Positions 968 to 48,771 of a DNA stretch of 64,000 nt are shown here, in pieces; position 1 is the stretch's first letter; the number at the start of each line of letters is the position of its first letter. The stretch lies in the NCBI RefSeq assembly GCF_044324875.1, contig NZ_CP172185.1, one strand, 5' to 3'. The DNA is from Escherichia coli. GTDB lineage: Bacteria > Pseudomonadota > Gammaproteobacteria > Enterobacterales > Enterobacteriaceae. The notes below the pieces were generated by a model. The model worked only from the letters and a program-made list of their open reading frames with translations, searched no databases and was not told the DNA's origin. The position numbers were made by a program, and so were the translations under genes.

Positions 968-1818
968 GGTTTACGTTTTTCCAGCGTACGATGGCGTGAC
1001 TGGACGTTTTTACCGCGCGAGCGGAAGTAGTCTGCCAGTTGCTCTGCAATATACACCGAACGGTGCTTCCCGCCGGTACAACCAATGGCAACCGTCAGGT
1101 AGCTACGGTTGTTGGTTTCCAGCATAGGTAACCATAGCTCAAGATAGCTTCGCGTCTGGTAGATAAAATTGTGTACTTCTGTGTGGCGGTCGAGGAACGC
1201 GGCGACAGGTTTATCAAGACCTGTCATTGGACGCAGTTTCGGATCCCAGTGCGGGTTCGGCAAGAAGCGCACGTCAAAGACGTAATCTGCATCGATAGGG
1301 ATACCGTGTTTGAAGCCGAAAGACTCAAAGACCATGGTCAGTTCGCGTTCACGTTTACCCAGCAGACGGGTACGCAGCATTTCAGCCAGCTCGTGAACGG
1401 ACATTTCTGAGGTATCGACAATCAGATCCGCTCGCGAACGCAGAGGCTCCAGCAGATCGCTTTCTTTGTCGATAGCACTTTCCAGCGACAGGTTTTTGCT
1501 GGAAAGCGGATGCAGTCGGCGCGTGTCACTGTAACGACGAATTAAGGTATTACGGTCGGCATCCAGGAACAGGAGTTGCGGTGAGAAAGCGTCAGGCAGG
1601 TTACTCATCGCCTGTTCGAATATTTCTGGTGACTCCGGCATATTACGAACATCAATGCTGACGGCGGCAGAAATCTCGCGATCGGCCAGAGTTCGAGCCA
1701 GATCGGGTAACAACACTACGGGAAGGTTATCCACGCAGTAAAAACCCATATCTTCCAGCGCACGCAGGGCGACAGATTTACCTGAACCTGAACGTCCGCT
1801 GACGATCATCAGTACCAT
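964..1818 (-). CDS. rapZ: RNase adaptor protein RapZ (P-loop NTPase)
   Basis: 284-aa ORF with Walker A GRSGSGKS; 4-nt overlap with ptsO. Confidence 0.93.
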
Positions 1819-1863
1819 GTACTGTTTCTCCTCACAACGTCTAAAAGAGACATTACCGAATAA

Positions 1864-2355
1864 CTACGCTTCATCCGGAGTACCTTCGGTATCCGTAATG
1901 ATTTGATACAGCTCTTCATCGCTCTGGGCAGCGCGTAAACGGCGGCAGATGGTTTTGTCCGCCAGACGTTTCGCCACCAGCGACAGAGTATGCAGGTGCG
2001 TTTTAGTTTGGTCTGCCGGCACCAGCAGGGCAAAAAGTAAATCCACCGGTTGGTTGTCGATGGCATCGAAAGCTATAGGCGTTTCGAGCTGAACGAAAAC
2101 GCCAACGGCGCGCAGAGTATCTTCTTCCAGTTTGCCATGCGGAATGGCAATACCATTGCCGATACCGGTACTGCCCATTTTTTCCCGCGTCAGGATAGCT
2201 TCAAAAACCACCTGAGGCGGCAGGCTAAGTTGTTTCGCCGCCAGCTCGCTGATGATTTCCAGGGCGCGTTTTTTGCTCTGACAGTGGACGCGGCTTCGCG
2301 TACATTCCCTGTTAAGAACACTGCTAAGCTGTAGAGTTGTATCATTATTTGTCAT
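1864..2355 (-). CDS. ptsN: Nitrogen PTS EIIA-Ntr
   Basis: ORF 1864..2379; start placed at internal Met (MTNNDTTLQLSSVL...) to give the 163-aa product I recall. Confidence 0.88.
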   Translation of the reverse strand: MTNNDTTLQLSSVLNRECTRSRVHCQSKKRALEIISELAAKQLSLPPQVVFEAILTREKMGSTGIGNGIAIPHGKLEEDTLRAVGVFVQLETPIAFDAIDNQPVDLLFALLVPADQTKTHLHTLSLVAKRLADKTICRRLRAAQSDEELYQIITDTEGTPDEA

Positions 2356-2472
2356 AATTTCACCTAAGAACCTGCCCACTCAAACAGTGGAACAGGCTCG
2401 GAGCATTAACCGTACAAATGGCCCGTTGTGCCGCACAACAGGCCGCCATGCACATGCTAATTGCCCGGACAA

Positions 2473-2760
2473 TTAGTGTTGTTTCAGTTTATCTTTATGT
2501 TTGGTCAACTGGCGTGCCAGCTTATCAATTAAGCCATCAATGGCAGCGTACATGTCCTGACCTTCCGCGCTGGCATGAATTTCACCACCGTTTACATGCA
2601 GTGTTGCATCTGAGGTGTGGGTGACTTTCTCCACTTTCAGAACAACATAGACCTGGTTGATTCGGTCAAAATATTGCTCAAGTTTGGCAAATTTGGCTGT
2701 AACAAATTCGCGCAGTGCCTCGGTGATCTCGACGTTATTTCCGGTAATGTTGAGCTGCAT
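2473..2760 (-). CDS. hpf: Ribosome hibernation promoting factor
   Basis: ORF 2473..2844; start placed at Met of MQLNITGNNVEITEALREF... (95 aa). Confidence 0.88.
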   Translation of the reverse strand: MQLNITGNNVEITEALREFVTAKFAKLEQYFDRINQVYVVLKVEKVTHTSDATLHVNGGEIHASAEGQDMYAAIDGLIDKLARQLTKHKDKLKQH

Positions 2761-2782
2761 AGTGTCTTCCTTATCGGTTGGG

Positions 2783-4216
2783 TCAAACGAGCTGTTTACG
2801 CTGGTTTGACGGCGGAATGGATAAAGACTCTCGGTACTTCGCAACAGTGCGGCGTGCCACCATGATACCTTGTTCCGACAGCAAAGAGGTTAACTTGCTG
2901 TCGCTCAACGGTTTCGCTGGGTTTTCCGCCGCGATTAATTTCTTCACCAGCGCACGAATCGCCGTGGAGGAAGCTTCGCCGCCGCCCTCGGTATTGACGT
3001 GACTGGAAAAGAAATACTTCAGTTCAAAAATGCCTCGTGGACTATGCAGGTATTTTTGCGTGGTCACGCGAGATATCGTCGATTCATGCATTTCGACAGC
3101 CTGGGCGATATCGGCCAGTACCATCGGTTTCATATATTCTTCGCCTTGCTCAAAGAAGGCTTGCTGCTGTTCAACGATACAGCGACTCACGCGCAGTAGC
3201 GTATCGTTACGGCTTTCCAGACTCTTGATCAACCATTTGGCATCCTGCAGATTGCTGCGGATAAACTGGCTGTCACCATCGTTGCGCGCGTTATTGCACA
3301 TCGAGGCGTAGTGCTGGTTGATTTGCAGACGCGGAATGCTGTCACTGTTGAGTTCTACCGTCCAGTGACCGTTATGCTTACGCACCAGCACATCTGGAAT
3401 GACATACTCAGGTTCGCCCGTCTGGATCGACTGCCCGGGGCGCGGATCGAGCGACTGGATCAGATTGACGGCTTCTTTCAGCACATCTTCTTTCAGACGC
3501 GTGACGCGCATTAAAGTGCGGAAGTCGTGATTGGCTAACAGATCGAGATGATCGCTAATGATCAGTCTGGCCTCTTCCAGCCATGGCGTGGTTTTATCGA
3601 ATTGGGAGAGTTGGATCAGCAGACAGTCACGCAGATCTTTTGCTGCCACACCGACCGGATCAAACCGTTGGATCCGCTTAAGGACGGCTTCAACTTCGTC
3701 GATGTCAATCTCTTCATCGCCCATACTTTCGAGAATATCTTCCAGTGGGACAGTCAGATAACCGGTGTCATCAACGGCATCGACGATAGAGGTAGCAATA
3801 GCGCGGTCAGTGTCAGAAAACGGTGTCAACTCGACCTGCCACATCAGGTAATCCTGCAAGGTCTGCGTCGTTTCGCCCTGATAGACCGGCAGCTCGTCGT
3901 CAATGTAGTCACCGCTGGTGCCGGATGGTGTACCAGCGGTGTAAATGGTGTCCCAACTGGCATCGAGCGGCAGCTCTTCCGGCATCTCTTTTTGTTCGAA
4001 CGCGTCGGCGGTGTCCAGCGTTTCACTGTCTTGCGTTTCGCGGGTGTCGATTTCTTCATGAGTGTCGATTTGCTCAAGCAGCGGATTACTCTCCAGCGCC
4101 TGCTGTAGCTCCTGCTGAAGTTCCAGCGTCGACAACTGCAACAGACGAATTGCCTGTTGGAGCTGTGGCGTCATCGCCAGTTGTTGGCTAAGCCTGAGTT
4201 GCAAACCTTGCTTCAT
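2783..4216 (-). CDS. rpoN: RNA polymerase sigma-54 factor
   Basis: 477-aa [31 protein letters not shown]..., C-terminal RpoN box [10 protein letters not shown]. Confidence 0.95.
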
Positions 4217-18538: not shown

Positions 18539-19972
18539 CTAATTATTCTGATAAATATCTTTATACAAACGGCTTTCAAATCGCACTAACGGAATACGGC
18601 GATTACGCTGATCCGCCGGTTCTACTGCATAGCCGGAAAGATATTGTACAAACGCCATTCGTTGCCCGCTCGCCGTGGTAATGAATCCCGCCAGGTTATA
18701 TACCCCCTGCAACGAGCCGGTTTTCGCTGAGACTTTGCCATCCACGCCCGCCTGATGCAGACCTGCACGGTACTGCAAAGAGCCGTCATAGCCCGCCAGC
18801 GGTAGCATAGAGATAAAGTTAAGTTCATTGTCGTGTTGGGCAATGTATTGCAGCACCTGCATCATGGTGGCGGGGGCAATCAGGTTATGCCGCGAAAGCC
18901 CTGAACCATCGGCAATAATGGTGTTACCAATATCGACACCGGCTTGCTGGCGCAGGATCTGACGCACGGCGTCCGACCCGGCCCGCCATGTTCCAGGCAC
19001 ATTGAAGCGCGCATGGCCTATCATGCGGAAAACCGTATCGGCAATCATGTTGTCCGACTTTTTCAGCATAATCTTAAGCAGATCGTGCAGCGGGGCCGAC
19101 TGTTTACTGGCAACTACCGTTCCAGGTTCGTTAACCTGAGTCTGGCGTAGCAGTGTTCCGCTCCAGGTGATACCTGCCTGTTTTAACTCATCTTTCAGAA
19201 TTGCCCCAGCATAGCTGGCTCCATCCTGCACGGCAAAAGCCAACGGGAGCGGCTCAGAACGTTGTGGCAGGCATCCGGTCAGCGTAAAGCGGTTCAGGTC
19301 GCCTGGCACCACATCCAGCTCGCAATATTGCGCTTCGGCAGAACCACGGGGGAGGGTGCGTACCTGGCTGAACATCGTAACGGGGTAATAAGATGCCACG
19401 CGTATAAAAGCCATATCACCAGGTTTTGGGGCACTGTAGAGCGAGACGGAGAAACAGTTGCGGTCAACTATGGCGGCGGCAGGCGGAGCGCTAAAGCATT
19501 GTGTCATGTCATTCCATGGCCAGCCGGGGGCTTTATCGTGGCTGGCGAAAATGGAGGTATCTATCAACACATTGCCATCGATTTGGTTGACGCCAGATTT
19601 TTTCAAAGTCGCGACCATATTGCGAATATCCTGACGTTTTAACGTCGGATCGGCACCAAATCGCGCCACTAAGTCACCCTTAAGTACGCCGTTTTCCACA
19701 TTGCCTTTGGTTTCAAGCGTCGTGGTAAAACGAAAATCGGGGCCGAGTTGAATCAACGCCGCCAGCGCAGTAATCACTTTCTGGGTACTGGCGGGCAGCG
19801 CCATCTGCTGACTGTGGTAATCAATAGCGGGGGCCGACGCGCCGACTTTTTGCACCATCAGGGCAAGGTTGGCACCAGCGGGGAGTTGAGTAATGTACTC
19901 ATCAACATTTGCGGCCTGAACACTGAACGCTATACAGCTGGTCAATCCGATGATAAATCTGGAAAATCGCAT
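18539..19972 (-). CDS. dacB: D-alanyl-D-alanine carboxypeptidase/endopeptidase PBP4
   Basis: 477-aa ORF with signal peptide and active-site STQK motif (ASTQKVITALAAL). Confidence 0.95.
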   Translation of the reverse strand: MRFSRFIIGLTSCIAFSVQAANVDEYITQLPAGANLALMVQKVGASAPAIDYHSQQMALPASTQKVITALAALIQLGPDFRFTTTLETKGNVENGVLKGDLVARFGADPTLKRQDIRNMVATLKKSGVNQIDGNVLIDTSIFASHDKAPGWPWNDMTQCFSAPPAAAIVDRNCFSVSLYSAPKPGDMAFIRVASYYPVTMFSQVRTLPRGSAEAQYCELDVVPGDLNRFTLTGCLPQRSEPLPLAFAVQDGASYAGAILKDELKQAGITWSGTLLRQTQVNEPGTVVASKQSAPLHDLLKIMLKKSDNMIADTVFRMIGHARFNVPGTWRAGSDAVRQILRQQAGVDIGNTIIADGSGLSRHNLIAPATMMQVLQYIAQHDNELNFISMLPLAGYDGSLQYRAGLHQAGVDGKVSAKTGSLQGVYNLAGFITTASGQRMAFVQYLSGYAVEPADQRNRRIPLVRFESRLYKDIYQNN

Positions 19973-44355: not shown

Positions 44356-44363
44356 TTGAACGA

Positions 44364-44388
44364 GCCGGATGAGCAGTTTTCATCCGGC
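44364..44388. terminator. Perfect 9-bp-stem hairpin between convergent mtr and the 176-aa ORF; candidate terminator
   Basis: gccggatga-gcagttt-tcatccggc; no strong T-tract on either side, so function is uncertain. Confidence 0.45.
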
Positions 44389-44415
44389 AATAATTCACAA
44401 GTACACGAGATGGTA

Positions 44416-44946
44416 TCAAATAAACCCCTGTTTATTATAAAGTTCTTCAGCGAGAGCTTCCCCGTGCTCATCGAAAAAAGCATCGGCGATAGTTAAATTT
44501 TCTGCCTTAGGATTTGCCGTTATTTTGCTACCATTGGCATCAAATTCGAGCGCGATAGCGGTCTCCGAACCCCACCAGTAATAATAAATTAGCGCAAAAT
44601 TATTTTCCCCTGGCGTAATAAACTTCTCGATTCCCCGCACACAGGCCATGAGTGGCATGAAGATTTCATAGCTCTCTGAGAGAAATATGTGATCCATCGT
44701 GACTATCTGTGTTTCTTTATTAAAGTTGATATGTTCGGCATAAATATTCTTTTCACTTTCACCAGAATTACAAGCTGCAAGATTGTTAAGCATTTTTGCA
44801 GGATCGCCGTACAACCGCTGCTTCTCGATAAACCATGGCAACCAGTCGTCATGGTCTTTGATATTTGTTGCTGGTGAATGGAAAAACTTCTCGAGGTTAC
44901 TCTCGGTAATATGTGCATGAAGAAAAAAGGAAGCCGGTTCACTCAT
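44416..44946 (-). CDS. Hypothetical 176-aa protein, no recognisable family; no N-terminal hydrophobic segment, so probably cytoplasmic; in the insertion relative to K-12
   Basis: Only long ORF across this AT-rich stretch (MSEPASFFLHAHITESNLEKFF...ALEFDANGSKITANPKAEN...KQGFI); weak GAGA-type SD upstream; coding status not independently supported. Confidence 0.55.
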   Translation of the reverse strand: MSEPASFFLHAHITESNLEKFFHSPATNIKDHDDWLPWFIEKQRLYGDPAKMLNNLAACNSGESEKNIYAEHINFNKETQIVTMDHIFLSESYEIFMPLMACVRGIEKFITPGENNFALIYYYWWGSETAIALEFDANGSKITANPKAENLTIADAFFDEHGEALAEELYNKQGFI

Positions 44947-45103
44947 AATGATTTTCTCTGGTAATAAGTCGATTTGTTCATTTCTCTGTTTGGCGATGAT
45001 AAAACGATGACTATTTTATAAAAGTACAGAACTGGACCTTTCATCTATTTCATATCATAAGAAAATATATACTTGAACTGGCTCAGAATAAGCGGAATAC
45101 GAA

Positions 45104-45823
45104 ATGGGGCGTAAAGGACTACTTGCTATTGTATTGTTGAGCCTGTTTATCGCCATGATTTTTCAATTTTTCTGGCCTGCCCCACACGATGAACACGTTT
45201 TCCTGCCAGTTGAAAAACCTGTCGCACCGTCTTTAAAAATCATTCATCCTGGTGACCAGTTATTTATCCGCATTCTGAAAGCGGAAGATAAGCTGGAACT
45301 GTGGGCAAGCACCAACAACAAGCCTTACGAACTCTATAAAACCTGGACTATATGCGCGTGGTCTGGTGGCTTAGGGCCAAAACACAAACAGGGGGATGGT
45401 AAAAGCCCGGAAGGTTTTTATGCCACCAACAAAGAGTTGCTTAACCCAAACAGCCGCTATCATCTGGCATTTAATATTGGTTACCCGAATGCTTACGATC
45501 GGGCAAACGGCTACACCGGTGATTTCATTATGGTTCACGGAAACTGCGTTTCGGCGGGCTGCTATGCCATGACCGATGCTGGTATTGAAGAGATTTATCA
45601 ACTGGTGGCGCAGGCGCTGAATAGCGGGCAGAAGAGCGTGCCGGTGCATATCTTCCCGTTTGCGATGGACGAAGAAAATATGCGCCAGGCGCAGGTATGG
45701 CCGGAATATAATTTCTGGCGTATGTTGAAGCCCGGCTATGATTACTTTGAAAAAAATCGCCGATTGCCAACCATCACCGTTGAAAACCGGCGTTATAAAA
45801 TCAGCCCAACAACTCTTCCTTAA
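45104..45823 (+). CDS. YkuD-fold L,D-transpeptidase-like protein, YafK/DpaA paralogue, with N-terminal signal peptide or membrane anchor
   Basis: 239-aa ORF with hydrophobic N-terminus ([19 protein letters not shown]); conserved blocks [55 protein letters not shown] and LKPGYDYFE match the E. coli YafK sequence as I recall it, including the catalytic-Cys HG..S.GC motif. Confidence 0.8.
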
Positions 45824-46808
45824 CATCCATCGCCAGTTCAAACGAATGCAGGCGCGCCTGGTGATCGAAAATCTGCCCGTTAACCATAATCTCATCGGCG
45901 TCGGTTTCGCGCAGGATCGACTGCAAGCCGTGACGCACTTTCGCTTTATCACCCACCAGCGACATACTCAGCGCCTGCTGCACGCCATACTGCTCGGACG
46001 GTGACCAGAACTGATCCATATTTTGAATCGGCGGCGGCAGTTGCCCGGTTTCGCCACGGCGCAGCTTCACAAAGGCTTGCTGCATTGAGGTAAACAGAAA
46101 TTCAGCGTCGCGGTTGCTGTCGGCGGCGATAATATTGATGCACACCATCGCATACGGTTTTTCCAGCCGTGCCGACGGTTTGAAGTTGCTGCGATAAAGA
46201 TGCAGCGCCTGGAACAACATATCCGGCGCGAAGTGTGAGGCAAACGCAAACGGCAGACCAAGCTGCGCCGCCAATTGCGCGCTGTAAAGGCTGGAGCCTA
46301 ACAACCACACGGGGATTTTCTCGCCATAGCCTGGTACCGGGCGCACATGCGGATTGGGATCGCGGGCGTCAAACCAGTCCACCAGCTCCGCGACATCGCG
46401 GGGAAAATTATCAATATCGCCGCTCATATGACGACGTAGAGCCATCATGGTTCGCTGGTCACTACCCGGAGCACGACCCAGCCCCAAATCGATTCGCCCC
46501 GGATAGAGCGTATTAAGCGTGCCGAACTGTTCGGCGATCACCAATGGTGAGTGATTAGGCAACATCACGCCGCCAGACCCCAGATGCAGCGTAGTGGTAT
46601 TCGCCGCCAGATAGCCAATCAAAACTGATGTTGCAGCACTGGCAATGCCGGTCATATTGTGGTGTTCCGCCAGCCAGTAGCGATGATAGCCGCGCTTTTC
46701 AGCCAGACGGGCGAGGTCGAGAGAGTGGGAGAACGCTTCTCGCGCTGAAGAACCTTCGGGAATGGGGGCCAGATCGAGTAGCGAAAACGCAATGGTTTTA
46801 TCAGTCAT
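45801..46808 (-). CDS. yhbW: Luciferase-like (LLM-class) flavin monooxygenase
   Basis: 335-aa [54 protein letters not shown]... Confidence 0.92.
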
Positions 46809-46811
46809 AAC

Positions 46812-46882
46812 AGCTCACTTTGTTACCGATTAATCTTTAATACTGCATTAAAGAGTAGTTAAAGTTGTTAACAAAGTGAGCT
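46812..46882. promoter_or_regulatory. 14-bp perfect inverted repeat with 43-bp spacer, adjacent to the yhbW start
   Basis: agctcactttgtta (46812-46825) and taacaaagtgagct (46869-46882); the first half overlaps the presumed yhbW SD (gtgagc), 4 nt from the ATG. Confidence 0.5.
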
Positions 46883-46888
46883 ATTTAC

Positions 46889-47767
46889 TTACGCTTGCAG
46901 CTCCAGCCCGGCCAGCCGACGCCAGTAGCCGTTACAATCGCTGTTTGCCGTCAACGGCAGTGGCGCAGCGCCATTTTCATTGGCGCGGAAGGCGTCGAGT
47001 ATCGCGAAAGTGTCAGTACCCTGCGGTGACAGGCGGACCACATCAACCAGCCCCTGCATGGATGCCAGCTCGTTACCGAGGTTGTAAACGTAGCCGCTCA
47101 TGGTCTGAATGCCGTTGAGTACAAACACTTGTTGGTTTTCCTGCGACAGCACGTTGCGCCCGTTCGGATACTTAATGCAGCAGGTTTCGCACTCATCTTT
47201 CGGGCGGTCTTCCGAACGCGCGGTAAAGCAGCGGGCGGAGTAGGCCAGCGGCAGATGACCGTAGCTCAGGACTTCCACTTCAAACTGGTTGCGAATGCCC
47301 AGCTCATCGCACTGATTAAGCAGATTCACCAGCCAGTCGCGGGAAAGCTCCACCGGCATACACCAGCGCATCATGCCCTGTTTGAGCAATATTTTCAGTG
47401 TCACCGCGTTGTAGCAGTTCAGCGCGTGCCCGGCGACGAACGGCAGTTTGCGTTCAGCGCACATATTCACCACGCCGAGATCGCTGGCTTCAATCAGAAA
47501 CTCACCGTTCTCAACATAGCGTTTCAGTTCGCCCAGTTCAGAGGATGCCTGCACCAGCGCCAGCGTGGAGAGCACAATCTGCTTACCACTTCCGGCGAGT
47601 GATTTTGCCATCTCCAGCCAGTCGCCAACTTTGGTTGCCCGGCGCTTGCTGCATACCGCTTCACCAAGATAAATCACGTCGGCGCTGCTGGCGGCGGCCT
47701 GCTGATAAAATTCTTCCAGCGTCTCTTTTGGCCAGTACCACAGCACTGGCCCTAAGGAATATTTCAT
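46889..47767 (-). CDS. ubiV: U32-family protein of O2-independent ubiquinone biosynthesis, UbiV
   Basis: ORF 46889..47785; start at internal Met MKYSLGPVLWYWPKE... (292 aa). Confidence 0.88.
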   Translation of the reverse strand: MKYSLGPVLWYWPKETLEEFYQQAAASSADVIYLGEAVCSKRRATKVGDWLEMAKSLAGSGKQIVLSTLALVQASSELGELKRYVENGEFLIEASDLGVVNMCAERKLPFVAGHALNCYNAVTLKILLKQGMMRWCMPVELSRDWLVNLLNQCDELGIRNQFEVEVLSYGHLPLAYSARCFTARSEDRPKDECETCCIKYPNGRNVLSQENQQVFVLNGIQTMSGYVYNLGNELASMQGLVDVVRLSPQGTDTFAILDAFRANENGAAPLPLTANSDCNGYWRRLAGLELQA

Positions 47768-47775
47768 TGCTTTTC

Positions 47776-48771
47776 TCACTGCCATTTACGGTGATACGCG
47801 CCAAGGGTGGTCTGCGTGCCTTCGGACATCGACCCGAGCGTCTCCATCCACGCGCTTTGCGGTACGAAGTTTTGCGGATCGGCCTTACAACGGTCGATAG
47901 CCTGACGCCAGACTTTCGCCACCTGGCTGACATACGCCGGGCTACGCTGGCGGCCTTCAATTTTCACCGAAGCAATATTCGCCGCCATTAACTCCGGCAG
48001 CAGTTCCAGGGTATTGAGACTGGTGGGTTCTTCCAGCGCGTGATAGCGCTCGCCGTCCACCAGATAACGCCCTTTACACAGCGTCGGATAACCTGCGTTT
48101 TCGCCATCCTGATAACGGTCGATCAGCACTTCGTTCAGGCGGGATTCCAGCCCCTGCGGCGTTTGTTGCCAGCGCACGAAACGGGCCGGAGAACACGCAC
48201 CCACAGTGTTGGGCGACTCACCCGTCAGATACGACGACAGATAGCAACGCCCTTCCGACATAATGCACAGGCTGCCGAAAGCAAACACTTCCAGCGGGAC
48301 AGGTGTGACCCGAGCCAGTTGTTTCACCTGATGAATCGACAACACGCGCGGCAGCACCACGCGTGCAACGTCAAAATGGCGATGATAAAAGTTAATCGCC
48401 TCTTCATTGGTCGCCGAAGCCTGCACCGATACGTGACGTTCAATATGCGGGTAACGTTCGGCGGCGTACTCCAGCATGGCGAGGTCGGCGAGGATCAGCG
48501 CGTCGGCACCCAGCTGCGCCGCCATATCCACGGCGCGCTGCCAACGGGCGTAACCGTCCGGATGCGCAAAAGTGTTAATCGCGATGTGAAGTTTGCGGCG
48601 ATGTTGATGGACAAAACTCACCGCTTCCTGCAATTTTTTCTCGGTAAAGTTAAGGCCGGCGAAGTGACGGGCATTAGTATCATCTTTTAGCCCGATATAA
48701 ACAGCATCTGCGCCGTTTTCGATGGTCGCCTTAAGCGCCGGGAGATTTCCGGCAGGGCAGAGCAGCTCCAT
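47776..48771 (-). CDS. ubiU: U32-family protein of O2-independent ubiquinone biosynthesis, UbiU
   Basis: ORF 47776..48798; start at internal Met MELLCPAGNLPALKATIENGADAVYIG... (331 aa). Confidence 0.88.
   Translation of the reverse strand: MELLCPAGNLPALKATIENGADAVYIGLKDDTNARHFAGLNFTEKKLQEAVSFVHQHRRKLHIAINTFAHPDGYARWQRAVDMAAQLGADALILADLAMLEYAAERYPHIERHVSVQASATNEEAINFYHRHFDVARVVLPRVLSIHQVKQLARVTPVPLEVFAFGSLCIMSEGRCYLSSYLTGESPNTVGACSPARFVRWQQTPQGLESRLNEVLIDRYQDGENAGYPTLCKGRYLVDGERYHALEEPTSLNTLELLPELMAANIASVKIEGRQRSPAYVSQVAKVWRQAIDRCKADPQNFVPQSAWMETLGSMSEGTQTTLGAYHRKWQ

Follow-up and report, generated by a model that had tools for sequence, protein, structure and literature searches.

A conserved inverted repeat in the ubiV-yhbW gap of Escherichia coli: a possible dual-use element, activator site as DNA and read-through hairpin as RNA

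The ubiV-yhbW gap and its inverted repeat

The genes ubiV and yhbW of E. coli lie one after the other on the minus strand of the window (the whole 64-kb stretch of DNA that was analysed) and are separated by a gap of 80 bp (46809-46888), as delimited by the list of open reading frames and by identical E. coli annotations. A sequence-only reading of this region had pointed to a perfect 14-bp inverted repeat between the ubiV stop and the yhbW start, with a presumed yhbW SD (gtgagc) in its downstream half, 4 nt from the ATG. The repeat, its place in the gap and the position of the SD were all confirmed. A repeat finder recovered AGCTCACTTTGTTA at 46812-46825 and its exact reverse complement at 46869-46882, for which the plus strand reads agctcactttgtta and taacaaagtgagct, respectively, and both arms lie entirely within the gap. 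On the minus strand the order towards yhbW is TAACAAAGTGAGCT, GTT, ATG, and GTGAGC stops 4 nt short of the start codon. The arms enclose a loop of 43 nt, and pairing between them reaches 17 nt (46809-46825 with 46869-46885, 94% complementarity). In addition, the upstream arm itself carries a 10-bp palindrome, TTGTTAACAA, that was also detected by the repeat finder. The features of the gap and its flanks are listed in Table 1.

Table 1 Position of genes, repeat arms and predicted elements in and around the ubiV-yhbW gap (window coordinates)
Feature	Position	Strand	Description and basis
ubiV	46889-47785	minus	gene 5′ of the gap; open reading frame list and identical E. coli records
ubiV stop codon TAA	46889-46891	minus	6 nt upstream of the upstream arm
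Polymorphic insertion point	46882-46883		~125-bp ERIC/IRU element between arm and ubiV stop; matches break at 46882
Whole predicted hairpin	46809-46885	minus	17-bp outer stem and inner stem of 4 + 9 bp; 77 nt, -27.1 kcal/mol
Marbox-like 20-mer ATAGCTCACTTTGTTAACAA	46865-46884	minus	forward relative to yhbW; overlaps the upstream arm; PWM
Upstream arm AGCTCACTTTGTTA (yhbW-sense)	46869-46882	minus	starts 6 nt past the ubiV stop
Inner palindrome TAATCTTTAAT / ATTAAAGAGTA	46831-46857		apical hairpin stem, contains the -10-like block; repeat finder and fold
-10-like hexamer CAGTAT (CAnTAT across genera)	46840-46845	minus	in conserved block TGCAGTATTAAA
Downstream arm TAACAAAGTGAGCT (yhbW-sense)	46812-46825	minus	with weak SD-like GTGAG; ends 3 nt before the ATG
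yhbW start codon ATG	46806-46808	minus	
yhbW	45801-46808	minus	gene 3′ of the gap; open reading frame list and identical E. coli records

Within the 64-kb window, this is the sole perfect inverted repeat of at least 14 bp with a loop of 3-100 nt. First-order Markov shuffles of the window contained a mean of 0.03 such repeats, with 3% of the shuffles having one, and a chance origin is ruled out by the conservation of the repeat. Of 5426 complete E. coli genomes, 5423 contain the 83-nt element, which is single-copy; identity is at least 99% in 3779 of them. A surrounding region of 301 bp is 100% identical to several E. coli strains and 96.7% identical to MG1655. The upstream arm is invariant in the E. 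coli variants that were sampled, and the polymorphisms of four variant strains all fall outside the 14-bp arms.

The border between the repeat and ubiV is a polymorphic insertion point. An ERIC/IRU element is found there in ~26% of E. coli genomes (one example: L001 3184-3308) and leaves the repeat intact, and ERIC or REP-like insertions of ~100-200 nt between the ubiV stop and the arm also occur in E. albertii and Salmonella, again with an unchanged repeat. Mobile DNA of the IS110 family has also landed beside the repeat. Perhaps the arms could themselves be the terminal inverted repeats of a small element, as would be in keeping with short inverted termini around an AT-rich core and with the ERIC and IS110-family DNA next to them. 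Against this, the element is single-copy, with one locus per E. coli genome and no second copy in the window, and the idea was rejected. It is furthermore fixed at the orthologous site across genera, with arms that are tied to the start codon and to promoter-like blocks, and the probability that the repeat is a mobile-element relic is close to negligible.

Conserved blocks and the putative yhbW promoter

Orthologous ubiV-yhbW gaps from ~20 Enterobacterales, collected by one scan of a genome collection and twelve contig look-ups, were compared with that of the window. Both arms are found again at the orthologous position in Escherichia albertii, Salmonella, Citrobacter, Superficieibacter, Enterobacter, Cronobacter, Franconibacter, Buttiauxella, Atlantibacter, Entomohabitans and Pluralibacter (11 named genera in all), and the upstream arm is kept in 16-19 Enterobacteriaceae loci. 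Three blocks are conserved in the gap when it is read in the sense of yhbW: block A, (A/G)GCTC(A/G)CTTTGTTAAC, which is the upstream arm; block B, TGCAGTAT(T/G)A, which contains the hexamer CAnTAT; and block C, TAACAAAGTGAGCnGTTATG, which consists of the downstream arm and the start codon. Counted from the first G of block A, the hexamer starts after 36 nt in 14 of the 16 species and after 35 nt in the other two, while the distance from B to C varies by up to ~75 nt. Such fixed spacing followed by variable spacing is the pattern expected of a promoter and then a variable 5′ UTR. A conserved and structured insert of ~70 nt lies between B and C in Enterobacter, Cronobacter, Franconibacter, Atlantibacter and Entomohabitans, and the spacing of the arms, 43 nt in E. 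coli, reaches up to 117 nt in other genera. In Brenneria, Erwinia and a non-syntenic Providencia copy, which have no upstream arm, the core of the downstream arm in block C, AAAGTGAG, is still present. This retention in distant genera indicates that the downstream arm has a function of its own, presumably translation initiation.

Conservation of both halves and compensatory changes between them had been proposed as a check of the pairing, and the conservation was upheld in the 11 genera named above. In 16 sequences, five cells differed in both partners (outer A-U versus G-C, plus one GCTCGC/GCGAGC), as many as were reached by 6 of 500 shuffles. With 20 sequences, the both-sided changes were reached by 100 of 500 shuffles and the covariation score by 307 of 500, with arms that are nearly invariant. 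Pairing is mainly conserved because both arms hardly change at all and, as covariation is not significant, it could simply follow from the separate conservation of two elements. Judged by eye and in small numbers, changes in one arm alone mostly permit G.U pairs in the sense strand, and 16 core cells are left unpaired.

A link between the upstream arm and transcription of yhbW is suggested by its likeness to a marbox. On a PWM derived from 33 MarA ChIP-seq sites (PMC5684230), block A scores 8.5 bits, which lies within the range of the real sites (3.7-20.2 bits), ranks 49th of 127,972 window positions and makes it the best marbox-like site in the gap. Compared to the working definition of the Grainger laboratory, gcannwwntgnnaaa with at most two mismatches (PMC12052159), GCTCACTTTGTTAAC has three mismatches (positions 3, 6 and 15; GCTC for GCAC) and falls outside of it. 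Promoters of class II that respond to MarA, SoxS, Rob or RamA carry a forward marbox that overlaps the -35 region (PMC12052159, PMC5684230), the centre of which is found between -36 and -55 (PMC12052159). The yhbW gap resembles these promoters in belonging to a regulon member and in having a forward-oriented block that would be centred at about -40 from the predicted start, inside the class II range, and that lies 18-19 nt before the conserved, weak -10-like hexamer (19 nt in 14 of 16 species), with a -35 that is not recognisable. It differs from them by its three mismatches and by its absence from the MarA ChIP-seq sites, and is treated here as a putative site. Based on these features, the 20-mer is probably the MarA/SoxS/Rob site and -35 region of a yhbW promoter, with a predicted transcription start at ~46833-46835 (MG1655 ~3303421-3303423). 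The fixed distance of block A from the -10-like hexamer, together with the regulon membership of yhbW, suggests that the mRNA made from this promoter probably starts between the arms and would lack the upstream half.

A scan for consensus sigma-70 promoters found none in the gap and did not call the -10-like hexamer. No start in the 33034xx range was present in the accessible part of the SMRT-Cappable-seq data (PMC6131387), no yhbW entry in the available portion of a TSS supplement (PMC3415461), and no yhbW start-site or 3′-end entry in those sections of the supplements of PMC12052159, PMC10268841 and PMC5684230 that could be consulted. A three-codon mini-ORF within the conserved block (ATG CAG TAT TAA, 46837-46848, minus strand) was considered as well and rejected, its ATG being CTG, ATA or GCG in other genera.

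The literature documents yhbW as a directly activated target of MarA/SoxS/Rob/RamA. In Klebsiella pneumoniae, purified RamA shifts in EMSA a fragment described simply as the yhbW promoter and raises its activity 6.9-fold in vitro (PMC4310594), deletion of ramA in Salmonella lowers yhbW 3-fold (PMC3139621), and E. coli yhbW is a member of the Rob regulon (PMC7653855). YhbW is the protein most induced by vanillin, 77-fold compared to 13-fold for its mRNA, and although membership of the SoxS regulon is cited, this induction persists without soxS (PMC6561319). The ubiUV genes, on the other hand, are transcribed from one promoter, located upstream of ubiU, that Fnr activates in micro- and anaerobiosis (PMC10470549). 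As ubiUV is driven by Fnr and yhbW by the mar/sox/rob/ramA system, yhbW must have a promoter of its own.

This promoter could alternatively be located further upstream. While block A was not recovered by ChIP-seq, a nearby published MarA ChIP-seq peak lies within ubiV at 47572-47586, with strong binding in vitro and in reverse orientation to yhbW. By eye, it is followed on the minus strand by cTGAac-17-TATGTT, which would put the marbox at about -73, as in class I promoters. If the main yhbW mRNA started from such a MarA-dependent promoter inside ubiV, it would carry both arms, and the hairpin described below would act as a standing or regulated translational brake. A promoter scan of the intragenic site found nothing, however, and the resulting mRNA would have an untranslated leader of ~700 nt and a masked ribosome site without a known opener. 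In addition, the conserved blocks A and B and their fixed spacing would be left unexplained, making this an improbable origin of the main mRNA.

It could also be that the arms act in DNA as two inverted sites for one protein, either as a spaced or looping operator or as an activating and a repressing marbox. Their identity over 14 bp, the marbox score of the upstream arm and the 10-bp palindrome within it agree with this idea. The downstream arm, however, scores 4.0 bits on the MarA PWM and has lost the AAA end of the marbox, Brenneria, Erwinia and Providencia keep it as the only arm, and an RNA 3′ end maps to the foot of the stem. A constant protein geometry is likewise difficult to square with arms whose spacing differs between genera, from 43 to 117 nt. 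With this spacing and the lone downstream half in distant genera, the palindromic operator with widely spaced half-sites, which had been offered as an alternative by the sequence-only reading, finds no support, and any arrangement of paired protein sites appears very improbable.

The predicted hairpin and the 3′ ends of ubiUV RNA

Folding of the minus-strand RNA of this region had been recommended as a check. Between 46790 and 46900, it predicted a stable hairpin of -28.8 kcal/mol (z = -4.3), and none of 200 shuffled sequences folded as well. In the predicted structure, the outer stem pairs precisely the segment of yhbW from the SD to the AUG. The plus-strand RNA folds almost equally well because the repeat is a near-palindrome. 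Rfam 15 contains no family matching the hairpin region or eight orthologous loci; the sole match, to mir-1285 on both strands (27 bits compared to a gathering threshold of 56), is spurious and reflects a generic hairpin resemblance.

The consequences of this fold for the ribosome-binding site depend on where the RNA starts. For a short RNA that carries the downstream arm alone, starting from the predicted yhbW start, the mean predicted unpaired probability of SD and AUG in E. coli is 0.63, and it drops to 0.15 in a long RNA that carries both arms, as would come from ubiUV. The short RNA is more open than the long one in 13 of 16 species. Occlusion of the SD by the upstream half, the central proposal of the earlier reading, is therefore supported for RNA with both halves, and such an RNA, b3158|b3159|b3160, exists. 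As originally worded, it is not supported for the main yhbW mRNA: the upstream half is a marbox-like block at fixed distance from the -10-like hexamer and is probably absent from that mRNA, so occlusion would apply to ubiUV read-through and not to the stress-induced transcript.

Evidence for read-through and for its limits comes from SMRT-Cappable-seq of MG1655 (PMC6131387, Supplementary Data 1), in which a ubiU-ubiV transcript (b3158|b3159) extends from 3301438 to 3303449 and ends at a novel TTS. This position corresponds to 46807 in the window, 2 nt past the 17-bp stem (yhbW starts at 3303448 in MG1655). Of 162 reads from the TSS, 16 end at 3303449 and 53 within 50 bp downstream, while 28 reads pass the site with a median read-through of 76 nt (PMC6131387). 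The same study extends the RegulonDB operons b3158|b3159 and b3160 to b3158|b3159|b3160 (PMC6131387). A rare read-through RNA, ubiU-ubiV-yhbW, that carries both arms therefore exists. In the accessible part of the Term-seq tables of PMC7815308, no 3′ end was listed at the stem.

The earlier reading had also considered the repeat as the terminator stem of ubiUV. Experimental data speak directly for this, as RNA 3′ ends map just after the stem, at the published TTS. The stem does not, however, have the properties of an intrinsic terminator, as only 5 of its 14 pairs are G-C, it encloses 43 nt, and the tail that follows it, GUUAUGAC, has no U-tract. A scan of the gap for consensus terminators found none, and neither promoters nor terminators were called in scans of the Erwinia, Brenneria, Acerihabitans and Salmonella gaps. 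The notion that a true terminator replaces the upstream arm in genera lacking it, which arose from inspection by eye, was dropped, being supported for Brenneria only. Beyond the stem, the C/G ratio is 1.4-1.9 over the first ~120 nt of yhbW compared to 0.95 for the whole gene, and this stretch is rut-like in that respect.

It could be that the hairpin is solely a 3′-end element of ubiUV mRNA, in the form of a weak or non-canonical terminator or a stem that protects against exonucleases, and that its overlap with the ribosome site has no regulatory effect. The novel TTS directly after the stem, the stable fold and an A-rich run before the stem in most genera are in line with such a role. The reads, however, are distributed differently from what a terminator alone would suggest, with 16 ending at the site against 53 scattered over the following 50 nt and 28 going through, and the stem lacks a U-tract, was not called by the terminator scan, is A/U-rich and encloses 43-117 nt. 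Furthermore, a pure 3′-end element leaves unexplained why its 3′ arm is a ribosome-binding region and its 5′ arm keeps a fixed distance to the -10-like hexamer. This explanation is considered unlikely.

The tricistronic RNA and the exact pairing of the SD-to-AUG segment would also be compatible with translational coupling, in which a ribosome finishing ubiV melts the outer stem and yhbW is translated in step with ubiV. In E. coli, Citrobacter, Superficieibacter, Enterobacter, Mangrovibacter, Cronobacter, Franconibacter, Buttiauxella, Atlantibacter, Entomohabitans and Pluralibacter, the ubiV stop is indeed separated from the first G of the arm by 4-7 nt. However, an arm that is simply the furthest-upstream promoter element of a compact gap would account for this proximity as well, and the stop has been moved away from the arm by insertions of ~100-200 nt in Salmonella, E. 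albertii and ~26% of E. coli genomes while the repeat remained unchanged. Most ubiUV RNA moreover ends before yhbW, and coupling would tie a gene under mar/sox/rob stress control to genes expressed by Fnr in anaerobiosis. Coupling of yhbW to ubiV therefore appears rather improbable.

A possible dual use of the repeat

Taken together, the observations are best accommodated by a dual-use junction element in which the repeat serves as an activator site for yhbW at the level of DNA and as a read-through hairpin at the level of RNA, a reading to which a probability of roughly 0.45 is assigned. The upstream half would form the activator site and -35 region of a MarA/SoxS/Rob-dependent yhbW promoter, with the -10-like hexamer and the transcription start (~46834) located between the halves. 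The mRNA from this promoter would carry the downstream half alone and keep its ribosome-binding site open. In RNA reading through from ubiUV, both halves would be present, and the hairpin with its 17-bp stem would bury the SD and AUG of yhbW. Left untranslated on such RNA, the C-rich start of yhbW would be exposed and open to Rho, and most read-through RNAs would have their 3′ ends at the hairpin foot or no more than ~50-80 nt from it. These 3′ ends could be formed by Rho-dependent termination or by exonucleases trimming back to the hairpin. The larger increase of YhbW protein (77-fold) than of its mRNA (13-fold) with vanillin would loosely fit a switch to a translatable mRNA isoform.

A more far-reaching version of the dual-use reading is put forward tentatively and may well go too far. 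Here, the same 14 nt would have been selected twice, once as an activator site and once as the strand opposing the ribosome site, the promoter of origin would decide whether an RNA can be translated, and the closed ubiUV RNA would be cut short by Rho. This would amount to fold-back inhibition of a host gene on the chromosome, based on a transcription-factor site that is coded for two uses.

Elements of this arrangement are known from other systems. The transposase genes of IS10/Tn10 and IS50 are protected from read-through transcripts by fold-back inhibition, as reported by Davis, Simons and Kleckner in 1985 and by Schulz and Reznikoff in 1991. As in these elements, yhbW is preceded by a segment, upstream of its predicted start, that can pair with the ribosome-binding region, and it is proposed that the RNA from the gene's own promoter lacks this segment and is translated, while RNA from outside contains it and has its ribosome site hidden. 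Unlike in IS10 and IS50, the gene to be protected would not be a transposase but a stress gene of the chromosome that follows a host operon, the upstream half seems to serve as an activator-binding site as well, and both the start and the translational effect are predicted.

Stem-loops at 3′ ends also mark the trimmed ends of Rho-terminated or read-through mRNAs, and an untranslated downstream gene leads to polarity. The ubiUV stem is similar in being stable, in lacking a U-tract, and in having a 3′ end 2 nt beyond it and further ends across a C-rich, G-poor stretch; it differs in its unusually long loop and in having one arm that is the ribosome site of the next gene, and the role of Rho is a proposed one. 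Translational coupling through masking hairpins that are opened by an upstream ribosome is found in polycistronic operons and RNA phages. The gap shares with these the ubiV stop a few nt from the masking strand in most genera, but insertions between stop and arm are tolerated in several lineages, and ubiUV and yhbW respond to opposite physiological signals.

Should the dual-use reading fail, what is left would be ordinary: a conserved 3′ stem of ubiUV mRNA beside a stress promoter. If it is true, the gap would offer a simple example of translation that depends on the promoter from which the RNA was made. Adjacent units of opposite physiology on the same strand, the anaerobic, Fnr-driven ubiquinone pathway and an oxygen-using, stress-induced flavin monooxygenase, would be separated within 80 bp without a canonical terminator. 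The physiology is coherent with this, as an oxygen-using flavin monooxygenase would be useless during anaerobic induction of ubiUV. It would furthermore give a reason why YhbW protein rises much more than yhbW mRNA under stress, and RNA-seq signal over yhbW in anaerobic cells need not imply that YhbW is synthesized.

Insertions on either side of yhbW

The short gap between ubiV and yhbW, which carries the 14-bp inverted repeat, is itself a site of insertion. An ERIC/IRU element of about 125 bp, with the ERIC1R and ERIC2 primer sequences in it, is inserted exactly between the ubiV stop codon and the repeat in approximately 1400 of 5424 E. coli genomes, counted as those whose matches are interrupted at query position 183. 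E. albertii has a longer form of this element. Despite the insertion, the repeat is intact. Strain M19 of E. coli has an IS110-family insertion sequence in place of the 5' end of yhbW and the outer portion of the downstream arm of the repeat, and its yhbW is annotated as a pseudogene with a missing N-terminus.

On the other side of the gene, the gap between mtr and yhbW measures 117 bp in MG1655, whereas in the window it holds an accessory segment of 1.45 kb annotated with an L,D-transpeptidase family protein and a hypothetical protein. This segment is 100% identical to strain 042 and is uncommon in E. coli, with a match in 183 of 5426 genomes; a YkuD-domain gene occupies the same place in one enterobacterial contig (L102). 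As the gap in E. coli CFSAN018748 contains instead a copy of IS621 (IS110-like) that is interrupted by ISEc31, the region downstream of yhbW is a hotspot for insertions.

Location of features in the window and in stretches of other genomes (L-numbers)
Feature	Location	Strand
Three-codon ORF (ATG CAG TAT TAA)	window 46837-46848	-
ERIC/IRU insertion point	window 46882/46883	
ERIC/IRU element copies	L001 3184-3308; L008 about 1300-1425	
IS110-family insertion sequence, M19	L002 about 1560-3005	
Accessory segment	window 44356-45800	
mtr-yhbW gap, CFSAN018748	L094 703-2944	
Conserved segment, about 70 nt	L004 1403-1485; equivalent place in L009, L087, L088, L090, L091, L100, L102	
gcacaatctgcttac, MarA ChIP-seq site (exact match)	window 47572-47586	+
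TATGTT following gcacaatctgcttac	window 47518-47513	-
GCACGATCTGCTTAA, marbox-like site	window 19074-19088	-
ATAACAAAGTGAGTCATTATG, Providencia	L093 1180-1203	

MarA-like sites in the window

A site within ubiV matches gcacaatctgcttac, a MarA ChIP-seq site reported inside yhbV of ETEC H10407 and bound strongly in vitro (PMC5684230). It is followed on the minus strand by cTGAac-17-TATGTT, and the two could form a class I promoter from which yhbW is transcribed; cTGAac-17-TATGTT is not called in a promoter scan. Scored with the MarA ChIP-seq matrix, GCACGATCTGCTTAA is the top marbox-like site anywhere in the window (15.2 bits).

The region before yhbW in other genera

The conserved -10-like block between the repeat arms spells a three-codon ORF, which is probably incidental because its ATG is not kept in Franconibacter, Pluralibacter or Buttiauxella. 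Five genera (Enterobacter, Cronobacter, Franconibacter, Atlantibacter and Entomohabitans) share a segment, conserved among them and about 70 nt long, that separates this block from the yhbW ribosome site and is absent from the window; in it ACAGCTTTCYGGC is followed by a variable hairpin and then by GCCAGGCTGGAAGAAGACCTTCAATCTGATGAC. RNAalifold predicted 20 pairs, five of them with compensatory changes, and an Rfam search with the segment returned no match. We regard the segment as a candidate RNA element of the leader.

The Providencia yhbW product shares 85% identity with the E. coli protein. As ATAACAAAGTGAGTCATTATG is kept before its start codon although ubiV is not adjacent, the sequence suggests that yhbW and its ribosome-binding region moved as one.
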